From Eremomyces bilateralis CBS 781.70 (Eukaryota), in assembly GCA_010015585.1 (NCBI GenBank), contig ML975157.1: DNA of 64,000 bases; one strand, written 5' to 3'. Made by a program: the position numbers and the translations under genes. Shown piece by piece: positions 10,891 through 53,430 of this stretch (position 1 is the stretch's first letter; each line of letters starts with the position of its first letter). The notes beneath the pieces are model-generated. The model saw only the letters and a list, made by a program, of their open reading frames with translations. It made no database searches and was not told the DNA's origin.

Positions 10891-12040
10891 TGTATTACGC
10901 GGGCCGAGCGCCACGGGGCGGTATTCGCCCCCGGTAAGTACCAACTTATTTACTTCACGCGGCGGAGAGCGAGAAGGAGGGGAACAGGGCCAAGATCTAA
11001 CGAGTAATACGAATCAGTGGAAACCAGATCCATCCAGAGGCAGAGCTCCGCGTCCTAGGCGTACAGGTCGACAGCAAACCCGCGTGGAAAGCACACGTTA
11101 CGCATGCGTCTCAGAGGGGAATCGCAGCCTTCGACGCCCTTCCCGTATCACCGCCTCAACCTGGGAACCATCAGTACGGCTATCCCGCTTCCTATACACA
11201 GCTATTGTTCGCCCAACAATACTACACGGTTCCGCTGTCTGGGGGATGTGCAACGGGGGCGCCACGGCGCCCGAAACCACCCTTAAACCCTTAAAGAAGA
11301 TTCAAAACAAGTGTCTCAAATGTGCCGCGGGGGCATATGGGTTGACTCCCACCGCTGCTCTAGGCAGGGAGCTTGCGGTCCCCCCTCCAGACGTACATCC
11401 AAGCAAGTGCCCTAGGCTACTACGCCAAAGTCGGCCAGTCACCCAGTTGTGGCTAAGACGTCGGAAACACTAGAAGTGGTCTGGGGGGCGCTATAGAATA
11501 GAGGCGTGCAAGGAGCAAGGGGAAGAGGCAGGCCGCGTGCGATACGCATGCGTCCACATAGCGTGGCGGAGACGGGGCGCCAGCAAGCGGAGGAGATCAT
11601 CCAAATGGTCAGGCTAGAAGCCCAACAGCACCGCCGCAGGGGAGGCAGGAGTTCCTCTCCAAAACCCCTCCGTATAAAAACCGCCATCTGGAAGTGGGTG
11701 GATCGCGGATGGCAGAAGGAATGGCAACGCAAGGCCCAAAACCAAACGGCAAGTTTCTGGAAAGGCAGCTGGCGCGAGGACCGCCTAGCACTCTACGACG
11801 GAGCCCCGAAACACATCGCAACCGCCCTCTTTCTCCTCCGCTCAGAAGTGATCGGTCTTATTGCATGGCTTGCGGGAGTCGAAGTCGCGGAGATACGCCC
11901 GCATTGTGCCTGCGGGTGACCTGCGCAAACAGTACGTCACGTCCTGATCCATTGCCTAAGACACGAACAGGCTCGAGTCTACGATACAAAGACGTAATTA
12001 GCCACGATCAGAGAAAGGAAAAGATAGAACAATAAGGGGG
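10891..12040 (+). mobile_element. 5'-truncated, degenerate non-LTR retrotransposon (Tad1-like LINE ORF2 3' part)
   Basis: RT C-terminal motifs GAVFAPGKYQLIYFTR, LRVLGVQVDSK..WKAHV, LYTAIVRPTILHGSAVW, IQNKCLK..AGAY..TP..AL. Terminal CCHC knuckle CACG*PAQTVRHVLIHC. Several stops and frameshifts. Confidence 0.9.
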
Positions 12041-12267
12041 CGAAGGCAGGAGGCTTGGCAATGATCCATGCCAGGAGAATTATGGTGAGTTTCGATTGGC
12101 GCTGGAGGATGGCAGATTTACCTCCAAAAACGGCGTCATAAACTGCCCAAAATGGAGGTCAATCTACCGTTAGATTGTTTAAACGAGTTTTCCATTACAT
12201 TCAATACAACTACAAAAATATACAAGCTCGGGGTATCTCTATTGTACATGTTCCGCTCAGCAATCCC

Positions 12268-15200
12268 TCAAGCCGCCTCCCCGCCTGTTGTTCTCCAGGT
12301 GCTAAAATGAGGAACCTCCCGTCCACAAAAGCAGTTGTACCGGCCATCAAACAACTCTAGACAAGTCCAATGCATCCCGCGTCCACAGGCAGCGCATTGG
12401 TAGAACAACCCAACAATCGATTGAACGCAAATCTCGCACTGCACAACTAGCAGAGCGAGAGGTCGAGGAGGGGAGGCGTGCTCGAAAACCGTTTCTCCCG
12501 CTCGCTCCACGATGGCGAATTTCTGAAATTCCGGCTTCTCTTTATCAACGTGTGGGGTCGAAGCGCCGCTTGGGTGATGGCTGCGCGCATCAAACGAGCC
12601 CTGTGCAAAGTCAGATCGACCGCTGTGGTGGAAATGACAAATATCAGAGCCTACCTTGGGTCCTTTCTCGGACCTCTCGTGAACGCCGTCCGGATCGATC
12701 GCCCAGGCACTCTTGCCACCTTCCCAATACGAGGTTAACCCGTTGAACTGCAACAGTTCCGCACGCTCCACCCAGAGTTCCCAGGAGCCCAAAAGGTGGG
12801 CATACATCATTCTGTACGCCTTGTATCGTTCGTCAGAGCCGGGATCAAGCAATGGTACGCTTCCATGCGCCTCGTTATCGAATCGATTTTGGTTCTTCAT
12901 GGTAACTCGGATGGAACTGCTCCCTCCCCGCGGGATGGTGATGGACTCGGTTATATTAGTGGGAGCCGTGGACGTTGAGAAGCGTTCGTCGGACCCTAAG
13001 GAGCTGCTGTTGCGCTCAGGACCAAGGACCGCCCCCTCGACGGAATACGAGTCTACAAATCCGTCGTCAAGTAGGAATCCGTACGGATCGCGTTTGCCCG
13101 AGGTGGAGACGCGCGTCGATCGCGGAGCATGAGCGCGAGGGCTGTCATAGACTTTGTTCTCTCCCCATGTGATACCACTGGTCGGAGCGGAGGTCGACAA
13201 ATCTCCGTCGTTGCGATGTCTCCCTTGAGTGGGCGGCGATGATGACACGTTCATAGCCAGGGTACGTAGGGATTGGAACGCATTGGATATATTCGAATTG
13301 ACCCGGCGTGTCTGGGTCGCGAGATGATGCTCGGGTGAAGTGGAGAAGCTGCCAGCAGCGCTAGATCGGAAAGTGTTCGAACGTGATAAGACCGGTGGAG
13401 TGTCGCCAGTAGAGAAGGGAGTCGGTGGCTCACTGTGGAAGTTGTCTGTGCCCCATGGCCCGTTGGACGACTCTGCTGAACCATAGACGCCCAGCTTAGC
13501 ATCTCCGTTGTCCCAAGGCTTAGCAAATGAAGATCGAAGGCCAGATGAAACAAGGACGTTGGGCTGAAACAAACTCCAAGCCACTTCTTGCGTTGCGAAA
13601 TAATCTAGTCCGAAGGCGGCACTTTTCATCGACATGGGAAATTCCTTCTTGTGTTGCCGGATCAAGGTGGTGTGAACCCCCTCTTTTGCGGCGGGCTCGA
13701 AAAAGATGCATGATAGCATGGCAAGCATCTGGATATCGGCAAGCTTCTCATAGTGCTCAAATAATTGCGGGATGAGCCACACGCTTGCAATAGGATGGTT
13801 CCCCCATTTGACACGACCCCGGAGCGCCGGATTCTCCACGGTGGCGGGCTTGTCCAGCTGGAGGTCGATTCCACTATCCTTCTTCTTCACTCGCACCCAT
13901 GATCGGCGCGCAAGGACCACAATCGGTTCTTTTCGTTGCTGTTGATCCATGATCTCAAGCGGGATTTCATTATAGAGCATGAGCTTTGCCAGGTTCCAAA
14001 CGGCGGCCGTATCGTCGTCGCCGTATACTGCCGCGACACGAGAATTATGGTCACAGACTAGCGGCCCGTTTCCAAACATGAGATACTCTCCAGCAAGTGC
14101 CTTCTTCGCCGGCAGGAGAGAATGCAGGTCATGGATGGATATGATTGCTTTGGATTTGCCGGCCCCTCCTTTGCTGCCTTGTTCGGCACTTGACTGCTGT
14201 GAAGTCTTATGAAACCTAAGCATCGCGCCTTTCCACGCGGCAGATCGCATGAAACGCGACGGGAGCCTTCCAATATCTCGCTCGCTGTCGGATGACGTAG
14301 TCGAGGAGCTCTCGCTGCTTCCCCCGGAATCGGAGGTTTCATCGTCCACCACCGAGGAGTTTTCCCGAAGGTCTGGGGATTCGGTATTGAGCCGACCAAA
14401 CCCTTCAAATACGCGATTGCCTCGTTGCAAATGATTGGCTGCGCGCAGAGTCGAGAGACTAAACAATGGCTTCGGTTCGGGCTTTGGGGGGAAAAAGCAG
14501 ACGAGCCGACCATCTGGAGTCCAGAGAGCACCGCAAGTTTTTGGGACAGGTACGTTCGCGGTGCTGGGGCCTATTTCCGCGCCACTCAATTCGAGATCCT
14601 GTCCATCAGGATGATGGAAGGCCGGGCCAACGCCCTCCTCTTCGTCGCTGGAGCTCGATTCATCTGCAGCTAATCCTGCAACATCGTCGGCATTGGAGAA
14701 GCTAATGCTATCTTCGAGGCCTCGTTCTCCGAGCAGGTAAGTTATGATTGCCTCTAATGAGCCCCTTTTTTTTGTCTGGTAGTGCTCGGTAATGGAGCGA
14801 AGCTCACGTTTCAGCCGTTCCATGGTGTCTTCTGAGATCGCAGAGACGGTCTTCTCAAAATCGTACTGCGGACATGCATCCGCCGGGTAATTATCAGGAA
14901 ATGATAGGTTCACTCGCAAGAAGGCAGGCTTCTCATCGGCTGCCCACGGTCCGTTCAGGGTGACCGTCGCAGAACGCTTTCCGATATTTGCTAGCTCAAA
15001 TGTGACCTTTTTGTATTTTTTGCCCACGTAAGTGATCTCGTCGCTGAGGCTTTCCGGTGTATCCCAGACAATCTGGTGGTCATTTTGATTTATTCGCGAG
15101 GACCGCGGCGTAAATCCACGAACCATGACGGGAAGAGGCCCGGCTCGTCCTACCCGGACTCCGGCCATCCACGCGATGGGATTGATCGTCCGATTTGGCG

Positions 15201-18294: not shown

Positions 18295-20891
18295 CTAAAC
18301 CTTGACGGGTGTTCGAAGAGTGAATGTCACTGGGGACCCATTTATGGTAACCCAAACGGTGAGCGGGTCGGAACCAATTTGTTCAGCTCTACCTCCGTTA
18401 TTGGAAGTCACAGGGCCGGGGAACGTCACTGGAAGAGGCTTGCCGCAACGGTTCCCGGTGGTCGTGAGCGTGGCCCCGACAATTTGCGACCCGTCGCTAG
18501 AATAGTTCCTACGTTATGTAAGCATTGAAATCGAGGACTAATAGATGACGGGTCTCCATACCAGGCGATATTCGGATTACACCGGTCCCGGGCCATGCGA
18601 TCCGCGAACGATACAGCTAGATCATCGTGTTTCAGCGTGAGCAGCGGCCAATCCACCAGCCTGACCACTTCTCCGACGACCGTTTCCACCCAGAACTGAA
18701 GCAGGGAGTACTTGCCGCTGACCGTGCCAGTGCTTTGGTTCGGCAAGTCCGACACGCGCATGTTGGCTTGATGGAACATGTAGGCGTCATGGTGCAGTCC
18801 CAGTATGCTTCGGGTGTTCACATCCCGCTCATCCTCGAACAGGGCCGCGGCGTTGCCGTTGACGCCGTAGGATGAGCGCCACTCCGCAACGTTGCAGTCG
18901 ATCGCATCGCAGTTGTAGAAGATGTTCGACACCCATCGTGGGGTGATCTGGTATCCATCGAATCCATTGGCAGATTGATTGGTGACCAATGGCCAGAATT
19001 CATTTTCCTAGAAACCAATTTTAATCCCGAACAACTCATAGAGGGAACGGGGAGTGAGCGCTTACATGGTTTAGTAATGCCGATCTGCTGTTGTCTCCAA
19101 CGCCGTTTTGCAGGCCGTTATCACTCCACGCTCTTAAGACGTCAGGGTTGTGAAAACCAGTAATACCCGGCGGGATCAGGCCCTTCCCAGAAAAATGCTT
19201 TGCAGCTGAGAATCCGATGGCGTCCAGGAATCCAATGTTGAATTTGATCTCCTTGTTTGCATCTTCGTAAGTTGCACCGTTCAACGATTGATGAGTACTG
19301 GTGGTGTTAGCAGCTGCCTGGTAGTATAGAACTGGTTGACTGACAATGTGTGAGAGACATGTGCGAATGCATCGCGATTGGTAGGATTCTTCAGCCAAAC
19401 CGCCAATGGGTCAAGATTTATGCAGGCGTCGCTCCAGGAGTACTCCGCTGGGCTTGTCGGCCAAACGTTCGTTCCCGACCCTGCAGGCTTCTTGTACTCC
19501 TGATCAGCGAACTCTGCAGGTGTAGACGAATAGTAGATGGCGCTCGGCGGTACACATGCCCCACCAGCTGGATCATTCTTGATGCCATTTTCGATGGCCC
19601 CGTTGCCGTTGTGACCGAGCTCAATGAAGTATTCCGAGCCGCGAGGCATCTTCCCTTGGATCTGACGGGTCCACGCAACGTGAGCCTCTAGATCCGCAGG
19701 TCGAAGACGGAAGTTGACAGTATTCGGCTGGAAGAGGGTCGTCTGGAGGAAAACATCGTCGACTTGGGTACCGAAATTCAGTCGGCGAATTCCGGTGTAA
19801 AGTCCCCGGGTCGCCCACTGAACCCAGACGTGGTCCAGATACGCAGACGTCACTAGGGCGTCGGTCGCCCATGCGGTGAAGAAGACAATCTGCTCTCGGC
19901 CGTTGATGTTATTGATGATTGCTGCCGTGGTCTGCTCCTTGAATATCCCTGACGGTGCAAAACGGGCAATTTCTCGTGCGATGCTCGGGTCGATGATCCT
20001 GGAAGGGTAATGCCACAATCCCTTCGTCGAAACCGTGGCGCCTTTCTTGAAGTTGACGCCTTCGAAACCAGTGAAATCAGTGACAGTGAGCAGCTGCTCG
20101 ACCGTGTCCTCGCAACACCCATCCCCAGTATGCGCATCTGTTACGCCGAATTCCTCCACCGGATAGGCATCCAGACGAGTCATACGGACACCGAACTTGA
20201 CCTGGTAATCGTAGAGCTGTTGCCACTGTTCCGGCTTCAAGGCACTGGACCCATCGTTTGAATCATCGTTTCGGACCTCGCTTACGACGACGATGCCGCC
20301 AAAGTTGCCCTGATTTCCGTTCGCTAGGGCGGGAAGTGTGACACTGCCGGAGCCAACGTAGACCACTCGGTAAGGGATGCCGTACGCTTGAAGGCGAGCG
20401 TAGCCTTGGTATGCATCGGCGGCATGCCGGGCGATCACTAGGAAAGTGGAGAGGCAGCTGTTGCCTCGCCCAGGGATTGGCGATGTCTGAGGGTCGGCTT
20501 TGGTGGTCGGTTTTGTTGTAATCGGACGGGTAGTGATTCCGCCTCCTCCTCTTGTCGTGGTGGGACGCGTAGTAACAGGCCCAACCGTTACCGTACGCGT
20601 GGTTCGACGACCTCCGGCAGACACGGTCACTGGGCGTCTACCAGTGACTGTAACAGTTGCGCCATTTCCCCCATTCCCGGCATTTCCTCCGCCGGGGCGG
20701 AGCGTTGGCCACTGTTGATTGGTCTGACGGCCATTCCCACCTTGGTACACCGTCACAGCAATGACTTGAGCGTCGCGCTCCTCGAGGTTTTGCTCCTCGA
20801 GAACGTCATCGGCGCGGATTTGAAACGGACTCAGAAAGAAAAGGATGAACAAGCAGAACGCAAGCAGATGGCGAGAGAGTGAAGGGGCCAT
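18295..20891 (-). CDS. Secreted Agd3-like polysaccharide (galactosaminogalactan) deacetylase, CE18-type (3 introns)
   Basis: Signal peptide MAPSLSRHLLAFCLFILFFL, Thr/Gly/Arg-rich linker, TQVDDVFL, spliced HVSHTFTH, GLIPPGITGFHN, GDNSR, PRW..NIFYNCD, YMFHQANMR, C-terminal EQIGSDPLTVWV. Confidence 0.85.
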
Positions 20892-22194
20892 CGTGGGGCG
20901 CAAAAGAACGAATGTAGAGGAGACACTTCGCAGCTCGACTCGAAAGTGGCACCCGGCCAAATGAATGTTTATATATTCGGACGCTGCACGAACCGAGAAC
21001 TGTATCGGCCAGAAGACGAAGCCCCGGAAATTGGTATTTCCAAGAGCCAAGGGTATTTACCATTTCTCCATCTTGGTGACAAACGTTTTCGGGCCACGAA
21101 AATTTCGTGCTCGCCATAATATACTGGGACGCCGCAACTTCGACGGCATCGTCATCGTCGCCTGCTGGCTTCACCGACCCTAAACCGATGTACGAACCGG
21201 GTCATCTGTGAGGGCAGCAGCCATTCTTCTGCGGCATCGATAGCGAAGTCATTGGAAGTTCCACGTTGACGAAAGGATGGCAAACAATGCGACGGTGATG
21301 CAAATTATGGAACAATTTGTATATATTGTATATAGTGATGGACGACCCGACCGAGCTAGGCTGGGACGGTTATGGGAAAGCGAGCAAGTTGGTGAGAGCG
21401 GCGATATTGCATATAAGACGCCTTGCCCGCAGGGATCCCATCATCATCCCATCGCATGGTGACCTCGGACACTTTATTATATTTATTTGGACGCGGCATC
21501 CCTCAGCTAGCATCCTCAGTATAGATTTCAATTTCTGGGACCAGGACAGATATATTGCCTGGTCCATCCGGTTGATTTGGAAGGGTGATATAAGGCCTAA
21601 ATATAGCCAGTGGGCACGAGGCCGCTCGTGAACTATTTTTCTCCAGACAATACGACGTCCATTGGCGTGTTGCTGGTGGTGTCATCGAAACGAGCTTCGG
21701 ATTTGACATGCGGTTGTTCTGTCGCTCCGTCCTCGATACGACTCTAGTCCTGAAGTGTCCTGAGCAAAAAAATCCAATCCTATCGTGTATCCAACCATTC
21801 TCTTCCACCCCTGGCGCCATGTCGACTCCGATTACGGAGGATAATTATCCACACTCGGAGTGAATCTTGATCTTGGTAGCGACGAGCCGTCCCAGGCCTT
21901 CGTTAGTATCTATCGACTCGAAAGCCAAAGATGCTGGAGAAAACAAGGACCAGGTTTCCTCAAACACTCACGATTCATGTTGGAGACGGCGTGGGAGCCT
22001 CGAAGTATCGTCATTACCCGTGCCTAATTCTAGCCCAACAAAGTTCTAAGAGCCATGCCTATCCATTTAAGGCTCATCATCTGATGCTCGTAATCACTGA
22101 TGCCCAAATCGCGATATCCCCAAACGCCAAACTTTTCCACCGCGTCTATCCCAACCATCTAAGCAGGCTCTATTCCGTCCCATGGTATCCCATC

Positions 22195-25100
22195 CTACTC
22201 CGCCTCATCGTCCGTGTCCAGCGGATGAGGCGTCCCCTTCGGGCTGTTCAGCCACTCGATATGCCGTAACCGCCTCCGCACCTCCCGCTCCTTCATCTGC
22301 GCGCGCGTCATCTTCTTCTTCTTCTTCGCCTTGAACTTCATGTCCCCGCCCTCCGCTTCGCTGTTCGCTGCCGACGCCGCCGCCGACGCCACCGCCGAGC
22401 TCATCCCGCTGGCCGGCCCGCTGCCGACGCCGCTAGGAGTTCCGATGCCAGACCCGGGACGGCTGTCCTCGAACCGATCCAGGGACACGGCGAGGTGGCC
22501 CTTGGCGGTCAGCCGCCCGTCGTTGACGTGCCATTGCTCCGGGCACAGTGCGCTGACGAACTCCTCATTATGTGATATCATGACCACGCCGCCGCGGAAA
22601 TCGCGGATCGCGACCGCCAGACCGCCGAGGGAATCGCGGTCCAGGAAATTGGTCGGTTCGTCGAGGATGAGGAGATGCGGGTTGTTCCACATGGCGCCGG
22701 CGAGGACGACCTTGACTTTTTGGCCGCCGGAGAGGCCGGAGATGGTGTTGTGGTTGGCGATCTCCGGGTCCAAGCCGATGTCCTCGAAGTGCTTCGAGAT
22801 GATCTTCGGCTCCAGCTGACGGAAGCCCAACCCTTCGCGGGAGGCCTCGTGGTCGTCGAACTCTTGGACGAGCTTTTGGAAGCCGCGGGCGAGCAGGGTT
22901 TCGCGGGAGATCATATTGTTGAACTTGGGGAGCCAGTTCACCCATTTCCTATGGACTGTTAGAGATATCCAGAAAAAGGGTAAGGGGCAAACTTACACTT
23001 CGTATTGGAAGCTCTTCTTGTACTTTTGCCGACCGATCAGCGCTTCAACGTTCCGTGGTCCACTGCCGTCGCCAATATCGATTGGCGTCGCCATCTGCGC
23101 CTTCTCATCCTCGGTCAAAATTCTCGTCGCCTTCATCAGCACCTCGCGGTCATCGCCGTGGGCATATCGCCACTGCAGGTACTGATTGGGCGTCTTCTCC
23201 AAGTGCATTTCCACGTGCTCCAACGCGTGCTGTTTGATGTATCCAATACGTAAGTTGGGATGCTTCTCGACCTTTCCTTCTTGTGGGACCACTTCGCCGG
23301 TGAGGACTTTGATGAGTGTGGACTTGCCGGCGCCGTTGGGTCCGATGATGGCCGTTCGCGATGATAACGAGAGCCCGGCGGATACATCGAACAGGTTCGG
23401 CTTTGATGCTCCGGGATATGTGAACGTGCAGTTCGTCATGCGAAGAATCGACCGGGTGTTGCTCTTGACTCCAGTCAGGAGCCCGGGGGGAGGGAATTTG
23501 AATTGAACGTTGGAGGCCGACAAGGTGTAGTAGGACTTGCCCTCGGGCTTAACCTTAACGAAAGCGGCAAGATTCCCCTTGTACGAAACCAGCTTCTTCT
23601 GCTCGTAGTGATAGATGTCGGTGCAGACGGCATCGAGGAACGCGGAGTCGTGGCTCACGATCAAACTCGTGATTTCCGTGTGCTTTTGGAGGTACTCCTC
23701 CAGCCACTTGATATTGGCAACGTCCAAATGATTGGTCGGCTCGTCCAGCAACAGAACTTGGGCTTTCATGAGCATCGCTCGTGCTAACGCCAACTTCATC
23801 TTCCAACCGCCCGAGCAGGCGCCGACCTTCATGGACTGCTTTCCCTCCGGACCGGCATCGAAGCCAACCTCTTCCAAGACGGAAGAGATGTGCTCGACGG
23901 TCTCGTCGGCAAAACGAGGATCCTTCGCGATAAACTCCAGAATGGTGAGGTCCGCGCTTTCGCCTTGGTTATGCTCGACGAAGCACGTCCGCAGTTGATC
24001 GGGGGTCGGGAATCCTTCGAGCTTCCCCTCAGCGATACTCCGCATGAGGGTTGACTTTCCGGCTCCGTTGCGACCGCAGAGCCCGTACCTGTGGCCTTTG
24101 AGGAGCCTCAGGTTGGTGTGCGAGAGGAGCAGCATGCCACCGTATCCCAGAGAAAACCTTGCGTTCACAATCTCCTCTTCGCCGTCCTCCTCTTGGATCG
24201 GAGCACCGTATTTCCGATTTTCCTCTTCGACGTAGAACGCATGCGCAGCTTCCGCAATAGCAGACGCACGTGCACTGTCAGTCAAATCCCTAAGGTACGG
24301 TTCAATGTTGACATGCAGCCGATCCAAATGGCGTTGGTTGACGTCCTCGGCCACCATCTCGGAGACATAGTTCTTGGTCGAGGCCCATACCGATGCATCC
24401 TCGGCTGAAATGTCCCCATTCTTTTGCACTTCCTTCTCCAGCAAGGCGGCGACATGTGCGGGAAGTGTGGGGGCGAAGATGTCGACCATTCCCTTACCAC
24501 CATTTTCGCCCATCGCTTGTTCGATCACCTTCAGCGCCCGCGATGCGATTTCGCGAACTTCCGGAAGCGAGGCTCGATCCTTCACCGCTTTCACACCAGG
24601 TTTCAACTTCGGCAGGAAAGCTCGTGCTTCAATCGGGTTATGAACCAGCTTGGTCAAGTTCTCCACCACAACCACGGTTTGGCGCAGCACCTCTTGGGTC
24701 GTGGTTGGAGTGTTCAGGGAGCGTTCCAGCAGCGGAGTGACGAGGGCGAGGACCGGAGATGTGACGACGGCCACGAATGTCGTCTGTGACAGAGCATGGA
24801 TGGCTTTCTGTTGAGTGCCGGTGGACGGATTTTCCATGGATTTGATGAGGAGGGGTATCCGGGGAGCAACATCGTCGTTTTGGAGAAGAGTCGTCAATAT
24901 GGTCATCGTCTTGGCGGCTTGCTTTGCAACCTGTGCAGATGTCGTTAGACTCGTTCTTGTTCAAATTTACTGTGGATGGACATACCTCGGACTTCAAATC
25001 GTGCATCCCTCCCTCGACGATCGGAATCAACCGCTCTAGCTGCTTGCCCATCATCTCTCGAAGGACGTCTTTGCTTTCCTCTTCTTCCCGCGTCCCTGAT

Positions 25101-45768: not shown

Positions 45769-47481
45769 TTAGGCCGTAAGAGCAGAGCTCACTCCAAGGA
45801 TCCCCATTCCAACAAAAGCAAATGTCATACAAAGGTTCCGGTTGTGGGTCAAGTCCAGGCTTTCTGCAAAGAGATGAAATGCCACTGATGTCATTACGCC
45901 AGCTGTATGGCATAGTCAGTGTTTCATTCCAAAACAATTCGATCTCGCAATAATACATGATCTGCATGTAGAGCGAAAGCAGGAAAATAATCGAGGGGGC
46001 GACTTACATGTTACAGCAAACATACAACCATACACTCCCTCACCAGGCTCGCTTCCGTAACCTTTGCCGGCGAGTCGAAACCACAATGCTGCAACGCCTG
46101 CTCCTAATGGCTGCGAGACACCACCAAGGAGGAAGCTCCAAAACATGGCTTTCCAACGGGAGTTGACAGCCAGATATAATGGGAGAGCCATGGCAAACCC
46201 CTCCGTGATATTATGGATGAACAGGGCGAGGAATACCGAGACGCCCAGCTTTGGGTTGGCATGGTTTGTCGCGTATGTGATAAAGCCTTCGGGGAGTTTG
46301 TGCAATGCGATTGCAAGGGATGTCTGCAGTCCGATGGAGAGAAAAGCATTTGAAGGGACATGATGGTGGTGGTTGTGGGCGGCTTCAGACGGAGATTCAT
46401 GTGTATGGGGGTCGGAATCGTGAGACCGTGAGGGAGAATGGTTATGGTCGTGATGCACTGGATGAACAAGACCGTTCGATTGACGTGCCTGCGAAGTTGT
46501 CCTCGGCGACTGGGCTTCGGAGTCGGGTATCGAAGGGACACGATTTGAAATGGCTGCCTCTTCATCGACCGGAAAAAGGAGCGGTTGTCGTTCGCCTCCA
46601 GCATGGGGATTGGGCGTGGTGGCGCTTCGTGAAAATCGTAGCTTGCGACCACCAGCCGCCGGGGTGGATCTGGATCCGCCTCGACTATGGATGTTCTTGA
46701 AGCACTCTTGGCCGCACGGCTCTGTGAATCCGTAACATTGTCCGTACTTGTCGCATTGAAGTTTCGTACTCGTGACGAGCTGCGAGACCCGACGGGTCAG
46801 TTGGGTGGATAAGGACGATCGGCTCCGGTCTTGCTCCGGCCAGGACAATCGCGCACCATAGTCATACGCTCGGTCGGTCGTTGGCGAAGTATCTGATTGG
46901 GAGGCGCGTCGCCCTCTTGCGAATAAATCTTCCGTGGTCTGATTGGGTATTGTTCCGTTCGCCGGCTTATCAGCGTCGCTGTCCTCGAATTCTGCCGCAT
47001 GTGTATGGTCGCAATCAACGACATGCGAAGGAATATACCGGTGAAGAATTCGCGAAAGGATTTGGATGCCTAGACCGCCGGCTATGAAACATCCTATCAA
47101 GGTCCAGGCGGCCGCTTTGGGGGTGAAACCGCCTCTCTCCATTGCGTTCTTTGCGGTCGGCAACATGTTGTATAAGGCGGAGAATAGCTATGTTCACTGG
47201 TTAGCAGGAACACACGTGGTATCCGTGGGAATATACCAGAACTCCGAAACTAAGGCTTAACGAGGAGGATAAGAACGCATTGCTATCTTGTATCGAGAAG
47301 GACTTCTGGCCTGGGAGCCGGCGAATAACCAAGTCGACGCATATTATGGAAGCTCCAGCGATACACGCTACAATCCATCCAGGAAATTAGCATAGACCCC
47401 GGATGGCATGGTTCAATTTAACTGACCGAGACCGCTCAAGGCGGTCATAATCCATCCTCGAGTATCAGTAGGAATCGCCAT
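45769..47481 (-). CDS. ZIP-family zinc/iron transporter, Zrt3-like (3 introns)
   Basis: RGWIMTALSG start, His-rich loop, IGLQTSLAIALHKLPEGF, HNITEGFAMALPLY, SQPLGA, final exon GVMTSVAFHLFAESL...GMGILG. Confidence 0.9.
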
Positions 47482-48059
47482 ATCAGTGGTGATACTGGTG
47501 AAGGGACGAACCAGGCGGTGGTGGCATTGGATGTAAATACGGATGTAAATACGGATGCTTGTAGGAGAGATGCTAATTTAGCAATTGAGGTCGGCTAAGA
47601 TACAAATAATCGGAACAAAGGGAAAATGGGAGTGATGACTGCGAATCCATCTTGATGGATCAATGGGAAGCGCACGTCGTTGAGTCCGTAGTTCGCTAGG
47701 CTAGCGATGTCATCAACATAACGAGAGGAATTGCATCAGGATCCAGATCGACCAACGGGATGGATCGACAGGGTGATTGCTGTGGAGCTTGGCTCTTACT
47801 TCTCTTCCCCGCCACACATTCCGCCCACCAGCTCGCAGCTGCAACCCAAACCATCAAGGTACCCGAAGATAATGCGCCAGAATTACGGTGTATCTATATG
47901 GTATAGAATGAACCGAGCACCGTCTGGGGTGGTCTACAGAAATACCATAGCTCCAATTCTTGTCCAAGAGAAGAATCCGAGAGAAGAATCCGAGGTAGGA
48001 GTGGGATTAGGCATAGGTGGTATGATATGTATATGGAATATGGAAGTCGATGAAATTTA

Positions 48060-49858
48060 TTACTCCTTTGCCATCCTTACATTATAGCGACACCACTTTT
48101 GGCCTACGCCCTTCTTCTTCACCCGGAACTTTCTACTCGATTTCCATCCAGATTTTCGGTTGATATTTAAGCCTCCGACATAGGTTCCGCTGTCATTCAT
48201 CTCACGACTTCCTCTATAACTATACTCCTCGATATTAGACAGGATGCCATGGAACTCGCTTTTTAGAAATTTAGGGAAGAGGCACAGGCCCTGCACTCTT
48301 TTGTCCTCGATTCCATCCAAACAGACGAGGAAGTCCATGCCATGGTGTTTAAACTTGATATCCTGTATTTCGACAGTCGTAGAGGAGTCCTCAACCGATA
48401 GAGTGGGGCCGTCCCATAGGTTTGGAAATGCGATCAGCGAGGTCATGCGGTTCCAGCCCATCGACAGGCCGTGCTCGACGACCTCGCTTCCACTGGGATA
48501 CTGATAGTGGCTGGCCAAGTTCTTGTCGGTATGCCACTGCATCAGCGGCTTCGACCCGGGGATACCTGTGACAAACCAACACAGATCCTCATTCTTCGCG
48601 CAATAACAGTCAACGCGATCGGATGTTGGCAGTACGTCACGCACAAACTTATTGAACGTAACCTTTGTGGGAGGTCCAATCGTCCCCAGGCGCATCGTCA
48701 ACCATGGGGCGACGTTGTCTTTGTAGAGCCTTTCGGCACAATATGGGAGAAAACCCTTGGCGAACTGGTTTGTGGGGCAGCCTCGTTTTGGACTTCCGGT
48801 TCCTTCCAGAGAAAGGCAGAGGCATGCACCTCTCTGATTTTCAAATATCTCCGCCTCAAGTCGGCTATGGAGAGACCTAGTTCTTGGAAGAGCCTTTCAA
48901 TTGCTTTGATGTTTCCGGCCGATGGCGCTGCATTCGGGTGTATATAGCCCTCCAGACCGGCCAATATGGACCACGTCTCCTCGATGTCCGAAAGTTTCTC
49001 CTTGCGCATTATCATGTCCAACAGCATAGACACAATCCCCCGGTATAGCACGTTGATATCTCCGAAGACGGCAGATCCTGCTGTCAAGTACAGGAGATTG
49101 TGGCATTCTGCAGTGCCTCTCTTGCGTCGGTCTAGGCGCTTGCTAGAGACTAATTCTTGAAGCCACTTGACCGGACCCTTGTGTTTATCCGCATACGGGA
49201 GTTTGTCGTTAAGCAGAAGATCCGCCGCCTTGTCAACGGTTTGCATGGAATAACCAGAAATACAGCGCTGGAGCATATCGGCCAGTTCCTTGATATCAGG
49301 GGATGGAAACCTTTTGTGTATCTGTTTCGTGAGCTTGTTCTGAGGTATCTTGACGCACATGTGAGTGAAACCGCCCGACTCCTTTACACCGAGTATGCCT
49401 CCTGTTTCAAAAAGTTCCGCCTCTTCGACCACTTTAGCATGTTTGAACAGGGAAGACAATGAGGACGAAACTTCCGGAATAGGCGATAGAGTGTCCCAGA
49501 GGAGAGGTACTGCGCGACCGGAAGCTGGATCCACCACTGCTAAATTTCCATATTGTCGGAGGAACTTTTTGCAAACCGAGCAATTCGCCGTCTGTCGAAT
49601 GCTTGGGTCGAACGCACTGAGATACGTATCAGCGAGATCAGTGGTCAGCCTCGCACGAAAGATGGGCGAGTCTGGCCACCGGGCGAGAATCGTATCAATT
49701 GAGTTTTGCAAGTGCGCCGCAAAGTATAGTTCCCAGGTGTTGGCCTCTTCGTTAGAGTTTGCGCCTGGGGGACGATGTATGGAAAGTTCATGGGAATTTG
49801 CTGTGCGTTCTGGTTCTCCAGCAACGTCCGCATAGATTTCGGTCAAGTCCGAATCCAT
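48060..49858 (-). pseudogene. Intronless hypothetical gene split into two overlapping frames at ~48700; resembles an uncharacterised bacterial/phage protein family
   Basis: ORF1 (likely start MDSDL, 49858): YLSAF..RQTANCSVCKKFLRQYGNL, GGFTHM, YIHPNAAPSAGNI, VFSHI. ORF2: VTFNKFVRDVLPT, PLMQW, LFPKFLKSEFHGI...IEEYS. No usable intron at the junction. Confidence 0.6.
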
Positions 49859-50650: not shown

Positions 50651-50892
50651 AACATCATCATCCTATTCCGTCTCCCTCGCGGCCGGTATTGAACCACTTC
50701 TGCATATACCCGTACACTACCCCTTCATTACCCCTTCACGACCTCGAACACGATATTTATCCTCCATAATAATGTCCCTACCATAACCGCACCGAAGTGA
50801 CCCAATTTGTACGAGTCCACCAGAGTAAATGAGCTTCCTGTTACCTCTTTTGTCGCGGCGCATGCCGACGCGACGGGTGTCCATACGATAGG

Positions 50893-53430
50893 ATGCCACC
50901 CCCCTCCAACCTTCGAGTCTCCGTGCAGTGGAAACAACCGGCAATATTCGCTGGAGAGGATGTCGAATGTATCATTACCTTCAAGAATGTTGCCCACACG
51001 CCGGAAGACAGACCAGTCGGCCCTCCAACAAGACCGAACGGCGTTGAGATACCACGATACAAAGCTAGTCGACGAGACCGACCGCAATCACACACCCGCA
51101 ATTCTTCGCTGAATTCGCAATTCTCTATTCCTGTTGGCCGTGGGCATCGGCCGACACTGTCGGTTCAAACGGCTTCTGCTCGTGCACCGAACGGGTCAAT
51201 CGCGGAGAGTGCCGAAACCCCCCTCAGTTCCGCTGCGACTCCACGGCCCAACCATGGCCGTTCACTATCAATTATCTCTCTAGGATCGCAGAGCAATGGC
51301 GTAAATAGCTCGGGGCAACCGGTTGAAACAAGCAGGTCTCGGAAACGGAACCATGGTCGGTCATCAAGCGCCCAGCTTGTTTCCAGCCATGCGTCCACAG
51401 GTCCACACGCTGGTAAGTTGTATATGAAATCTCTTAGCTACCGCATCCGCTTACAATCTTCACCTTTTAGGGCAGCGTGGTACCCCTCAGACCTCTCACC
51501 AAGGAACACCTCCAGTAATCCGCGAAGATCGGGACGAGGTCTCTGAATCGTTAGCATCAGAACTAGACGCTGTTTCTGGGCAGGATTGGGGTGAGCCAAG
51601 GTACAATGGACCTCCCCCAATCCACACCGACTTTAAATTCCCTCCTTCAACGTCTCCGATACCGAGTATCGAATCGAAGGCGCTGGCGCCGGCGCCTGAA
51701 ATCATTACGCCGGAATTCCCCTTGACGCCGCACTCAAGACCCCGATCCCCGCGATCCAGCCACATTCCTCAGTCTTCGCCGTCAGTGAACCCCATCGCAC
51801 GGATTCTCTCCGGAACAAGTGTTGCGGAGACGCCAAGGAGTAGCATGGACGTTTATTCCATGAGCAATCATTCGAGCGAGACACTGATTTCCGAATATGC
51901 CCCTCACCCATCGGCTCGGCTTCTCCCCCGGGCCTTACGGCTACCTCGAATAGCGACACAGCCGCCGAAAGCGTCTCAACCGGAGGTTCTTATGATGGGC
52001 TATGCCCAGGTTATAGGATCATTCACAGTCGACGGTGCCATAATCGACCAAGAACCTTTCGAGGAGGTGAAACGGAAGGGCGTAGTTGGTGGCTACGGTG
52101 GAGGTGGTGTCGTGGGAATCCATTCATCCAAAACCGACAGTGGAATCTTTGGCGGTTTCGGCTGGGGAAGCATTGGGGAAGGACTTGGTAGTCTTCTCCG
52201 GCCTGGGGAGCAGAGCAGTATCAAAGACATGCGAGGCATTGCAAGCTCGAAGAGCGTGCCTTTACTAACCACACCTCAATCCATCCTGTTTGTGGATGAT
52301 CGGTTGGCGCCCGGCCAGTCTCGGACATATTCGTATAGCTTCACGTTACCGAAAGGCCTTCCTCCCAGTCACAGAGGCAGGGCCATTAAAATCTCCTATC
52401 GTCTTGTCATAGGCACCCAACGGCCCGGATCAACCAGAGACCAACAGGTCCGATCTGTGGAAGTGCCGTTTCGGGTGCTTGGCAGTGTCAACTGTGAGTC
52501 CCGTGGTTCCTCGCTTGGGAAATTGATTGCTGACCAGCTACAGCTCGAGGCGAAGTGTTGGGGCACGATTTGATGTCACCTTACATTATTCTTCGGGATC
52601 AAGCGAGAACATCGCCGATGGATCCCGCGTCCCCATCGCAACCACTAGCCCCGCGGATAAAAAAGAAAGGGCAAGACTCCACTCAAGCTGAATTTATGGA
52701 GTATGTGGGCGGTCTACTCGACAAGCCACGACAGAACTCCAGTATAGGGTTATTATCTCCAACAGAGCACGGTAACCGCCGGCTATCCCGTGCAGAGGAA
52801 CCACAAAACGCCAACGAAGCGGTTGCCCTGGCGATCATGAGGAGTAATGCAACTGGTTTCGGGAATCAGAGCTCGAATCGGTTCGATATCTCCCGAAGCG
52901 GGCGACGTGTCGCAACCATTGTTCTCGTTCGCCCGGCATTCCGGCTCGGAGAAACCGTCTCGGCAGTCGTGGATTTCTCCGGGGCCGATATTCCGTCCTA
53001 TTTTATCGAAGCATCTTTGGAAACATCTGAAGCGATCGATCATACCATTGCGCTTCGATCGCCGACCAGCATTCATCGGGTGACGCGCAAGGTCTGGTCC
53101 ACCTTGGCGGAAGTTGCCCTCTTTGCATCGAGAGTGACGTTTTCCCCCACAATACCCCGGACAGCGACGCCTGATTTTGTTACGACGGGGGTCAGTCTGA
53201 ATTGGATTTTGCGCTTTGAGTTTGTGACCCCCCGGTTGGTGAATGAGTTTGGGGAAGAAGTACGCTGGGACAAAGTGCTGGAAGAGCTGTCGGATGACGA
53301 TCGGGGGGGCATTCTTGGTGCTACTGACCGGCTTCACTGCGAGAGTTTTGAAGTGACGGTCCCGATCCGAGTCTACGGGTCCGTTGGCGATGCAGAAGAA
53401 ACAACTGAACCTGAGAGTCTTGTAGTATAA
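50893..53430 (+). CDS. RGP1: Rgp1, subunit of the Ric1-Rgp1 Ypt6/Rab6 GEF (introns 51413-51470, 52494-52543)
   Basis: IFAGEDVECIITFKN, LMMGYAQVIGSF, PLLTTPQSILFVD, LPKGLPPSHRG, VEVPFRV, TPDFVTTGVSLNWILRFEFV. Confidence 0.92.

Follow-up and report, generated by a model that had tools for sequence, protein, structure and literature searches.

About 1.8 kb of intronless coding sequence lies between a ZIP zinc transporter gene and RGP1 in the fungus Eremomyces bilateralis CBS 781.70, and it was first noticed because it resembled genes of bacteria and large phages. How did such a gene come to stand there, and is it still a working gene? We examined it within a 64,000-nucleotide stretch of contig ML975157.1 (GenBank assembly GCA_010015585.1), which we call the window. 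The original prediction, made from the DNA letters, described a laterally acquired, possibly conflict-related protein of an uncharacterised family. Its coordinates for the gene proved exact, and Pfam matches identified the two flanking genes. The claim of lateral acquisition stood in part: a rooted tree favors a bacterial or phage origin in the deep past, and the gene is neither private to Eremomyces nor recently acquired. A conflict-related role gained no support, and the probable pseudogene state of the gene is a point that had not been considered.

We consider it likely that the decaying gene at this locus came originally from a bacteriophage or a bacterium, was gained once by an early fungal ancestor and was kept patchily in Dikarya. 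A gene from phages or bacteria would have entered that ancestor a single time, stayed in scattered Dikarya lineages and been lost from most others. The Eremomyces copy would now sit in an ordinary chromosomal context between ZIP and Rgp1. With its frame shifted by one base in a linker between domains, and with two arginines replaced (R305 and R529 in the numbering of the fungal homologue P0001), it would be a recently inactivated pseudogene.

Family membership and state of the gene

The gene consists of two overlapping open reading frames, ORF A and ORF B (Table 1). When aligned with relatives of 504–635 residues, ORF A makes up the N-terminal two thirds and ORF B the C-terminal third. Following the layout of a model of P0001, ORF A encodes an N-terminal α/β domain, a helical domain and a Y-x-R-P-x-A-A-P-S-x-G-N loop, and ORF B encodes a C-terminal α+β domain. 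Because the overlapping frames, taken together, are colinear with full-length homologues of 550–635 residues and contain no intron-like insertion, the gene has no intron and one frameshift.

Both halves matched the hidden Markov model of phrog_1735 (PHROGs v4), ORF A with E = 1.7e-27 (residues 46–380, profile positions 7–341 of 673) and ORF B with E = 5.8e-6; for comparison, a bacterial homologue, P0004, scored 5.6e-90 and P0001 scored 1.4e-46. ORF A was 37–39% identical to P0001–P0003. Judged by sequence, membership in phrog_1735 is far beyond chance, and the window gene has the length, motif order and Cys/Cys/His residues of the family, whose function is unknown. The relatives we found carry a precomputed assignment to PF26675.1, save three shorter hits with no recorded family, and we infer through homology that the window gene belongs to PF26675 as well. 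Our local copy of Pfam, which lacks the PF26675 model, returned no family for the window ORFs and sub-threshold chance matches for two of the four homologues P0001–P0004. NCBIfam gave no family for the ORFs or the homologues, and a Pfam search for fused domains in 16 long or odd family members found none above threshold.

As the original prediction had supposed, this is an uncharacterised family of bacteria and large phages. A profile search of 1.84 billion representatives recovered 3482 proteins at E ≤ 1e-3, each representing a cluster at 50% identity, and 1603 at E ≤ 1e-30. A pattern scan located 34 bacterial genome loci (Myxococcota, Bacillota, Burkholderia, Gemmatimonadota and others) and 102 viral stretches, the best 80 of which were kept as loci. 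Among 50,697 cultured phage records, 473 had a tblastn match, almost always annotated ‘hypothetical protein’. The holders include PaMx74-like siphoviruses, Ackermannviridae (Cba120 and Ag3), phiCbK-like Caulobacter phages, Bacillus phages and the jumbo phages PaBG, Eowyn and PCH45. One hit, in Salmonella phage Guerrero (H57; OP610151.1, 85294–86436), is labelled ‘putative DNA-directed RNA polymerase’, a label for which we found no support. We found no paper that names PF26675 or phrog_1735, and none that names the fungal members CC1G_05473, BDBG_06865, XP_002622747 or FGG08_002860.

All motifs quoted in the original prediction are present and correspond to conserved family blocks (Table 1). 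The same is true of the Cys-x-x-Cys pair and the distal His that it had singled out as possible metal ligands, each of which is found in 149 of 150 aligned members. In P0001 numbering, the conserved polar residues of the family are C82, C85 and H164 in the N-terminal domain and Y303, R305, E319, R334, R335, N434, Y439, H526, R529, E533 and S536 in the remainder, which is accompanied by many tryptophans. A functional member would be expected to have an uninterrupted frame of about 520–640 codons and the invariant or near-invariant arginines R305, R334 and R529. The window copy has the Cys-x-x-Cys and the distal His, and it keeps R334 (150 of 150 members), but it differs from the family in its broken frame and in its lack of R305 and R529. 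It departs from the family at six of the 53 best-conserved columns (at least 85% among the 150 members), among them R305, R529, R270 and P300.

The break itself can be placed closely. Since the family motif is readable in frame A as far as VFSHIVPK and resumes in frame B at PPTKVTF, the break must fall within the short zone listed in Table 1, in a linker whose predicted local distance difference test score (pLDDT) is about 69–82 in the P0001 model. The −1 frame downstream is what the loss of one base would produce. We also considered rescue by an intron. Twelve GT..AG pairs would restore the frame, but none of their donors (GTGCAT, GTCCAA, GTTCGC, GTTTTC, GTGCCG) is canonical, and every pair would delete conserved coding residues (W349, F363 or PPT).

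Contigs from three public sequencing runs, with depths of 160, 231 and 22, cross the frameshift site with no differences and no gaps. They are contigs rather than reads, the runs carry a single organism label and represent two samples and two studies, and two of them may be the source of the window. The contigs are good evidence for a real frameshift, though they do not settle the matter. Given a frameshift in the inter-domain linker and the replacement of R305 and R529, the window copy is probably a recent pseudogene. Its inactivation, if real, must be recent because ORF B is still open and most family residues are retained.

Other observations concern this copy and the condition of its relatives. 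A 2322-nt contig (run X3, record 5) extends from 47976 to beyond 50100, unspliced and with the frameshift. It begins 84 nt downstream of the stop of the gene and reaches about 440 nt upstream of its ATG. It would fit a transcript if the run were RNA, a run type that is guessed. In a run that bears the same species label but comes from a second organism, no words of the gene were found, which is no proof of absence. Two metagenome contigs, L119 (4105–5967) and L120 (9770–11632), have an in-frame TGA where their close relative L118 has Trp, and they represent either a second, independent disabled fungal copy or a read-through codon. The homologue in Pseudomonas phage AAT-1 (H17; KU204984.2, 1936–3547) was matched in two pieces, and the 375-residue AAT-1 protein in BFVD covers only part of the model, so the gene may be split in this phage too.

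Table 1. Features of the locus, in window coordinates. Residue numbers in parentheses refer to P0001.
Feature	Coordinates	Strand	Description
Whole gene relic	48060..49858	(-)	Intronless phrog_1735 / PF26675 homologue (PF26675 through homology), one frameshift, ~600 codons
ORF A	48698..49858	(-)	ATG 49856-49858, 386 codons, TGA stop 48698-48700
ORF B	48060..48698	(-)	212 codons, TAA stop 48060-48062; ATG at 48693-48695
Frameshift zone	48675..48730	(-)	Weakly conserved, lower-confidence linker; downstream in -1 frame
NCSVCKKFLRQYGNL	49541-49585	(-)	Conserved family block, quoted in the original prediction
CxxC, ORF A Cys93 and Cys96 (C82/C85)	49571..49582	(-)	Each Cys in 149/150 members
GGFTHM	49358-49375	(-)	Conserved family block
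His166 in GGFTHM (H164)	49361..49363	(-)	His in 149/150 members
His307 replacing Arg (R305)	48938..48940	(-)	Arg in 150/150 aligned members
PNAAPSAGNI	48908-48937	(-)	Conserved family block
VFSH	48743-48754	(-)	Conserved family block
TFNKFVRDVLP	48627-48659	(-)	Conserved family block
PLMQW	48534-48548	(-)	Conserved family block
LFPKFLKSEFHGILSNIEEYS	48219-48281	(-)	Conserved family block
Leu replacing Arg (R529)	48240..48242	(-)	Arg in 146/150 members
ZIP zinc transporter	45769..47523	(-)	With introns; Pfam Zip E 3.6e-19
Rgp1	50833..53430	(+)	Divergently oriented; Pfam Rgp1 E 3.2e-73

The surroundings of the gene are those of a fungal chromosome. Intron-bearing fungal genes stand on either side, and an exon of Rgp1 matches the protein of Eremomyces bilateralis CBS 781.70 at 99% identity (next best 49–69%, mostly other Dothideomycetes). 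The GC content at third codon positions (GC3) is 0.55 and 0.62 in the two ORFs vs. 0.53–0.68 in most neighboring genes. A search for mobile-element signatures around the gene found only short chance repeats and no flanking repeats. Elsewhere in the window, an Agd3-type deacetylase (CBM87 and Agd3_CE; 19284–21056) and an EF3/New1-like ABC ATPase (22996–24960) are ordinary fungal genes unrelated to this one.

Fungal relatives and the origin of the gene

The closest relatives of the window gene are fungal. When we used the read-through protein, with X at the break, as a BLASTP query, the best match was to Trichoglossum hirsutum (37% over 542 residues), and an E value of 4e-113 was obtained between the window protein and a fungal homologue. 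Identity to about 30 other long proteins was 30–37%, and the bacterial and phage-clade proteins listed reached at most 30%. Four named fungal proteins are intact and keep both R305 and R529: KAI9856766.1 of T. hirsutum (37% identical to the window protein), KAH0542812.1 of Glutinoglossum americanum (36%), BDBG_06865 of Blastomyces gilchristii (cluster representative 33%) and CC1G_05473 of Coprinopsis cinerea (cluster representative 30%). The three fungal loci for which the DNA was read (L115, L117 and L118) are intronless, as is the window gene.

Phylogenetic trees placed the window copy within this fungal clade in all four cases. In a FastTree analysis of 122 rows, 36 rows (the window and long proteins) were separated with support of 100 from 86 rows, which hold all the bacterial and viral loci placed in that tree. 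A second FastTree analysis of 102 rows, with metagenome loci and more fungal hits, gave a eukaryote-side clade of 66 rows (support 100), and IQ-TREE (LG+C20 PMSF, 65 rows) gave the same split (100/100). Finally, in an IQ-TREE analysis rooted on three distant bacterial members, a 23-row clade with support of 100 and a stem of 0.85 emerges from a polytomy with bacterial and phage lineages. This rooted pattern is the one expected for a transfer from the prokaryotic world to eukaryotes, and it is best read as the mark of a bacterial or phage origin of the fungal copies. The eukaryotic sequences nest among prokaryotic and viral ones, as such an origin would predict, and the gene is integrated in a eukaryotic chromosome. 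The window copy stands in a separate eukaryotic clade that is about 25–30% identical to phage members.

The clade spans at least six ascomycete lineages and one basidiomycete. Its named members are the Geoglossomycetes Trichoglossum, Glutinoglossum and Geoglossum, as well as Candelaria pacifica, Xylogone sp. (Leotiomycetes), three Blastomyces species (Eurotiomycetes), Piccolia ochrophora and, from the basidiomycetes, Coprinopsis cinerea. A clade-profile search added eight metagenome loci, seven of which have eukaryotic neighbors (among them HET, P450, homogentisate dioxygenase, ORC/Cdc6, a split CLC channel and Ras). On the fungal contig L115, ZIP comes after the homologue, and the two are oriented as they are in the window (tblastx 13382–15079, 41–80% identity by segment). 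Between the two, L115 also carries an Endonuclease_NS gene (DNA/RNA non-specific endonuclease; 11931–13241, E = 1.8e-64), which has no counterpart in the part of the window that was searched (30000–64000).

From these comparisons the acquisition is old, and the window copy is inherited rather than newly imported, since the closest relatives are fungal, the trees unite them, the ZIP order is common with L115, the GC3 is host-like and no repeats flank the gene. The patchy distribution implies many losses, some transfer between fungi, or both, and the trees do not decide between these. The original prediction had named a broad, vertical spread across Pezizomycotina without close prokaryotic or phage matches as the pattern that would tell against it. 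About half of this pattern was found: the fungal spread is broad but patchy, and the prokaryotic matches are many but distant.

Two members of the clade are unusual. The homologue L121 (8777–10627) lies on a 31.6-kb metagenome contig of 25.5% GC with tightly packed intronless ORFs. This contig carries MORN, LRR, pentapeptide, DUF4419 and DUF7666 domains by Pfam, no bacterial NCBIfam equivalogs and few PHROG matches, and it looks like a giant virus, although this is unproven. In the trees, L121 falls within the eukaryotic clade or close to its base, and the proteins P0017 and P0023 go with it. The other case is the ascomycete Xylogone, which groups with the subclade that contains the basidiomycete Coprinopsis cinerea (joint support 100). 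The genus Xylogone includes a parasite of Ganoderma mushrooms. The grouping hints at a transfer between fungal phyla.

Gene neighborhood and predicted structure

The original prediction had called for an analysis of the neighborhood of prokaryotic homologues. In that analysis, genes of DNA, RNA or nucleotide metabolism outnumbered structural and packaging genes, and no partner was constant. BLAST clustering of 851 neighbors from 99 loci revealed no conserved partner gene; the most widespread cluster occurred in 8 of the 99 loci. For 67 phage or prophage loci, we annotated 292 neighbors with PHROG, taking three genes on each side in 24 loci and two on each side in 43; the latter set comprises the first 150 of the 200 proteins available from 56 loci. 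The best match belonged to DNA, RNA or nucleotide metabolism for 42 of the 292 neighbors, in 31 loci, a count taken with no background set. These neighbors include ribonucleotide reductase subunits, thymidylate synthase, dUTPase, dCMP deaminase, exonucleases, RecE/RecT/Erf/Sak4 and single-stranded DNA-binding protein, and further a helicase, a primase, a topoisomerase, ParB, RtcB and a Holliday-junction resolvase. Head, connector or packaging genes accounted for nine proteins in five loci; there were also three integrases and one endolysin.

Individual phages illustrate the setting. In Pseudomonas phage PaMx74 the gene (PaMx74_08; 42% identical over 97% to P0004 by tblastn) lies between nrdJ and DNA ligase and has its own terminators. 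In the Ackermannviridae phage Cba120 the homologue (orf153; 24% over 70% to P0004 by tblastn) lies downstream of the sliding clamp and clamp loader genes, five genes away. For DLP4, a published table gives the order nrdA, nrdB, the gene, a hypothetical protein, polynucleotide kinase and DNA ligase (PMC6469090). All three homologues are annotated ‘hypothetical protein’ and stand in replication or nucleotide-metabolism modules, whereas the fungal gene is chromosomal and stands alone.

We next turn to the structure. AlphaFold2 modeled P0001 with confidence from a 150-row alignment (pLDDT 92.4, predicted template modeling score (pTM) 0.85), and likewise its C-terminal half (pLDDT 87.9, pTM 0.85). 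Foldseek returned no PDB match at E ≤ 1e-3 for the whole model or for the C-terminal half. VIA-align of the whole model against 48,161 chains gave none at Z ≥ 5, the top value being 4.8 for the helical part, and the C-terminal half gave one chain at Z ≥ 2 (2.2); by the program's own note, typical best values for unmatched models are 7–8. A sequence-profile search of the PDB gave one chance match (E = 0.17). The predicted models are thus confident, with no solved-structure analogue found for the whole model or the C-terminal half. In BFVD, only uncharacterised phage and giant-virus proteins match the model, the latter (about 620 residues) being A0A5J6VM02 from a Megaviridae environmental sample (E = 1.8e-13) and A0A1V0SEF2 from Indivirus ILV1 (E = 3e-7). 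The ESM Atlas held no usable match for P0004, and its model of the Coprinopsis protein is poor (pLDDT 0.32), so that the matches of that model are meaningless.

Thioredoxin-like and deaminase-like readings of the CxxC...H arrangement were provisionally dropped, because neither the whole model nor its C-terminal half gave a fold match and the motif order is unlike that of a deaminase. Deaminases have the order H-x-E...PCxxC, the reverse of that seen here.

The intact protein, of about 540–620 residues, would begin with an N-terminal α/β domain that bears the Cys-x-x-Cys and the His, continue with a helical domain and end in a C-terminal α+β domain with many conserved Arg, Trp, Tyr, Asn and Glu residues. 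The Cys/Cys/His cluster may coordinate a metal, and phosphate groups may bind to the arginine-rich surface (R305, R334, R335 and R529). Our best guess, drawn from gene neighborhood and residue chemistry, is a stand-alone enzyme or binding factor for nucleic acid or nucleotides.

Alternative readings and what the locus means

Some of the evidence weighs against the history, state and function that we prefer, and it has to be set beside the rival accounts. The single ancient gain was read from monophyly only, with poor resolution inside the clade; the window copy is on a long branch (1.0–1.3), most clade members are unnamed metagenome proteins, and at least one of them, the low-GC L121, is not obviously fungal. 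A recent transfer from a bacterium or phage directly into Eremomyces would suit a family that is overwhelmingly bacterial and phage, an intronless gene, and the lack of any other Dothideomycete among the named homologues in a database rich in Dothideomycete proteomes. We nevertheless regard it as very improbable, since the best identity is to fungal proteins (37% vs. at most 30% for the listed bacterial and phage-clade proteins), the window copy falls inside the fungal clade in every tree, the GC3 is that of the host, the adjacency to ZIP is common with another fungus and mobile-element repeats are lacking. It is harder to set aside transfers between fungi or through viruses, by which the window copy would have come from another eukaryote or a giant virus. 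The Xylogone–Coprinopsis grouping points this way, as do the compact, orphan-rich L121 contig and two unnamed proteins inside or at the base of the clade, and the giant-virus proteins that match the model. We still think such a route unlikely: the three Geoglossomycete genera cluster and the three Blastomyces species fall in one 90% cluster, as vertical descent predicts, the ZIP adjacency is common to deeply diverged fungi, the window copy is not nested among the sequences of another class, and the giant-virus sequences lack a place in the trees.

The state of the copy is weighed in the same way. The sequencing runs may share one strain, and a systematic base-calling error at a CCCC run is conceivable. 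ORF B is open for 212 codons (chance expectation about 4e-5) and keeps most family residues, including the equivalents of W429, N434, Y439, W471, E533 and S536. Intact fungal members depart at 0–8 of the 53 best-conserved columns, which makes the six of the window copy unremarkable; with ORF B open as well, the break must be very young unless the gene is still alive. An ATG stands 2 nt past the ORF A stop (stop-CG-ATG) and could in principle restart translation, the break falls in a linker of lower model confidence, and the AAT-1 homologue, whose 375-residue protein matches the model, is likewise in two pieces. The gene could on these grounds still function, the frameshift being an artefact or the protein being made as ORF A alone or as ORF A with a restarted ORF B. 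We doubt this, because contigs from two studies agree on the frameshift, arginines found in 150 and 146 of 150 members are replaced, and no protein of this locus appeared in two family searches that used the ORF as query or part of the profile; reinitiation after a long (386-codon) ORF is, moreover, inefficient in eukaryotes. The proposed function has a neighborhood with no background control and no conserved partner gene behind it, and the family might instead be a phage counter-defence factor or a defence effector: across very diverse phages and prophages it occurs as a single gene with no partner, and in PaMx74 it has terminators of its own. In fungi it is lost or broken repeatedly, as in the window and at the TGA of L119 and L120, in the manner of dispensable accessory genes. 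A conflict protein is nonetheless improbable. PADLOC-DB v2 (E ≤ 0.01), which speaks only to catalogued families, gave no family for either window ORF or for two homologues, and the phage neighbors belong to core replication, recombination and nucleotide functions, not to defence islands. Long retention with conserved residues in fungi, which face no phages, argues for a biochemical activity independent of the host. A bolder combination, to which we give little credence, is that the family is a new-fold nucleic-acid or nucleotide enzyme from the replication modules of phages of many bacterial phyla, and that it crossed once into eukaryotes, possibly via giant viruses. Useful to a cell without any phage partner, it would have persisted in scattered Dikarya for hundreds of millions of years, and the Eremomyces copy would be in fission, splitting into N- and C-terminal polypeptides with stop and restart ATG 2 nt apart.

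Under the decaying-copy account that we prefer, the locus reduces to a probable pseudogene of a catalogued family of unknown function, and for this reason it is not evidence of a recent, conflict-driven acquisition. The history has a parallel in the GH25 lysozymes of fungi, in which an intronless gene of prokaryotic-virus type was fixed in eukaryotic chromosomes and then inherited patchily. For GH25, a known function explains the retention; the present family has no known function to do so, and the fold searches brought up no analogue among solved structures. The locus would be a datable example of a phage-type gene that was fixed and later eroded in a fungal chromosome. The family is very common in phages and has a single eukaryotic offshoot, in ascomycetes and a basidiomycete, with structural relatives in giant viruses. 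It is this family, rather than the window copy, that is worth following up: it is widespread, occurs in phages, giant viruses and fungi, and its models, of the whole protein and of the C-terminal half, match no solved structure. Intact copies exist in Coprinopsis cinerea, PaMx74 and DLP4, so that this protein, conserved in phages and mushrooms alike, can be tested directly.

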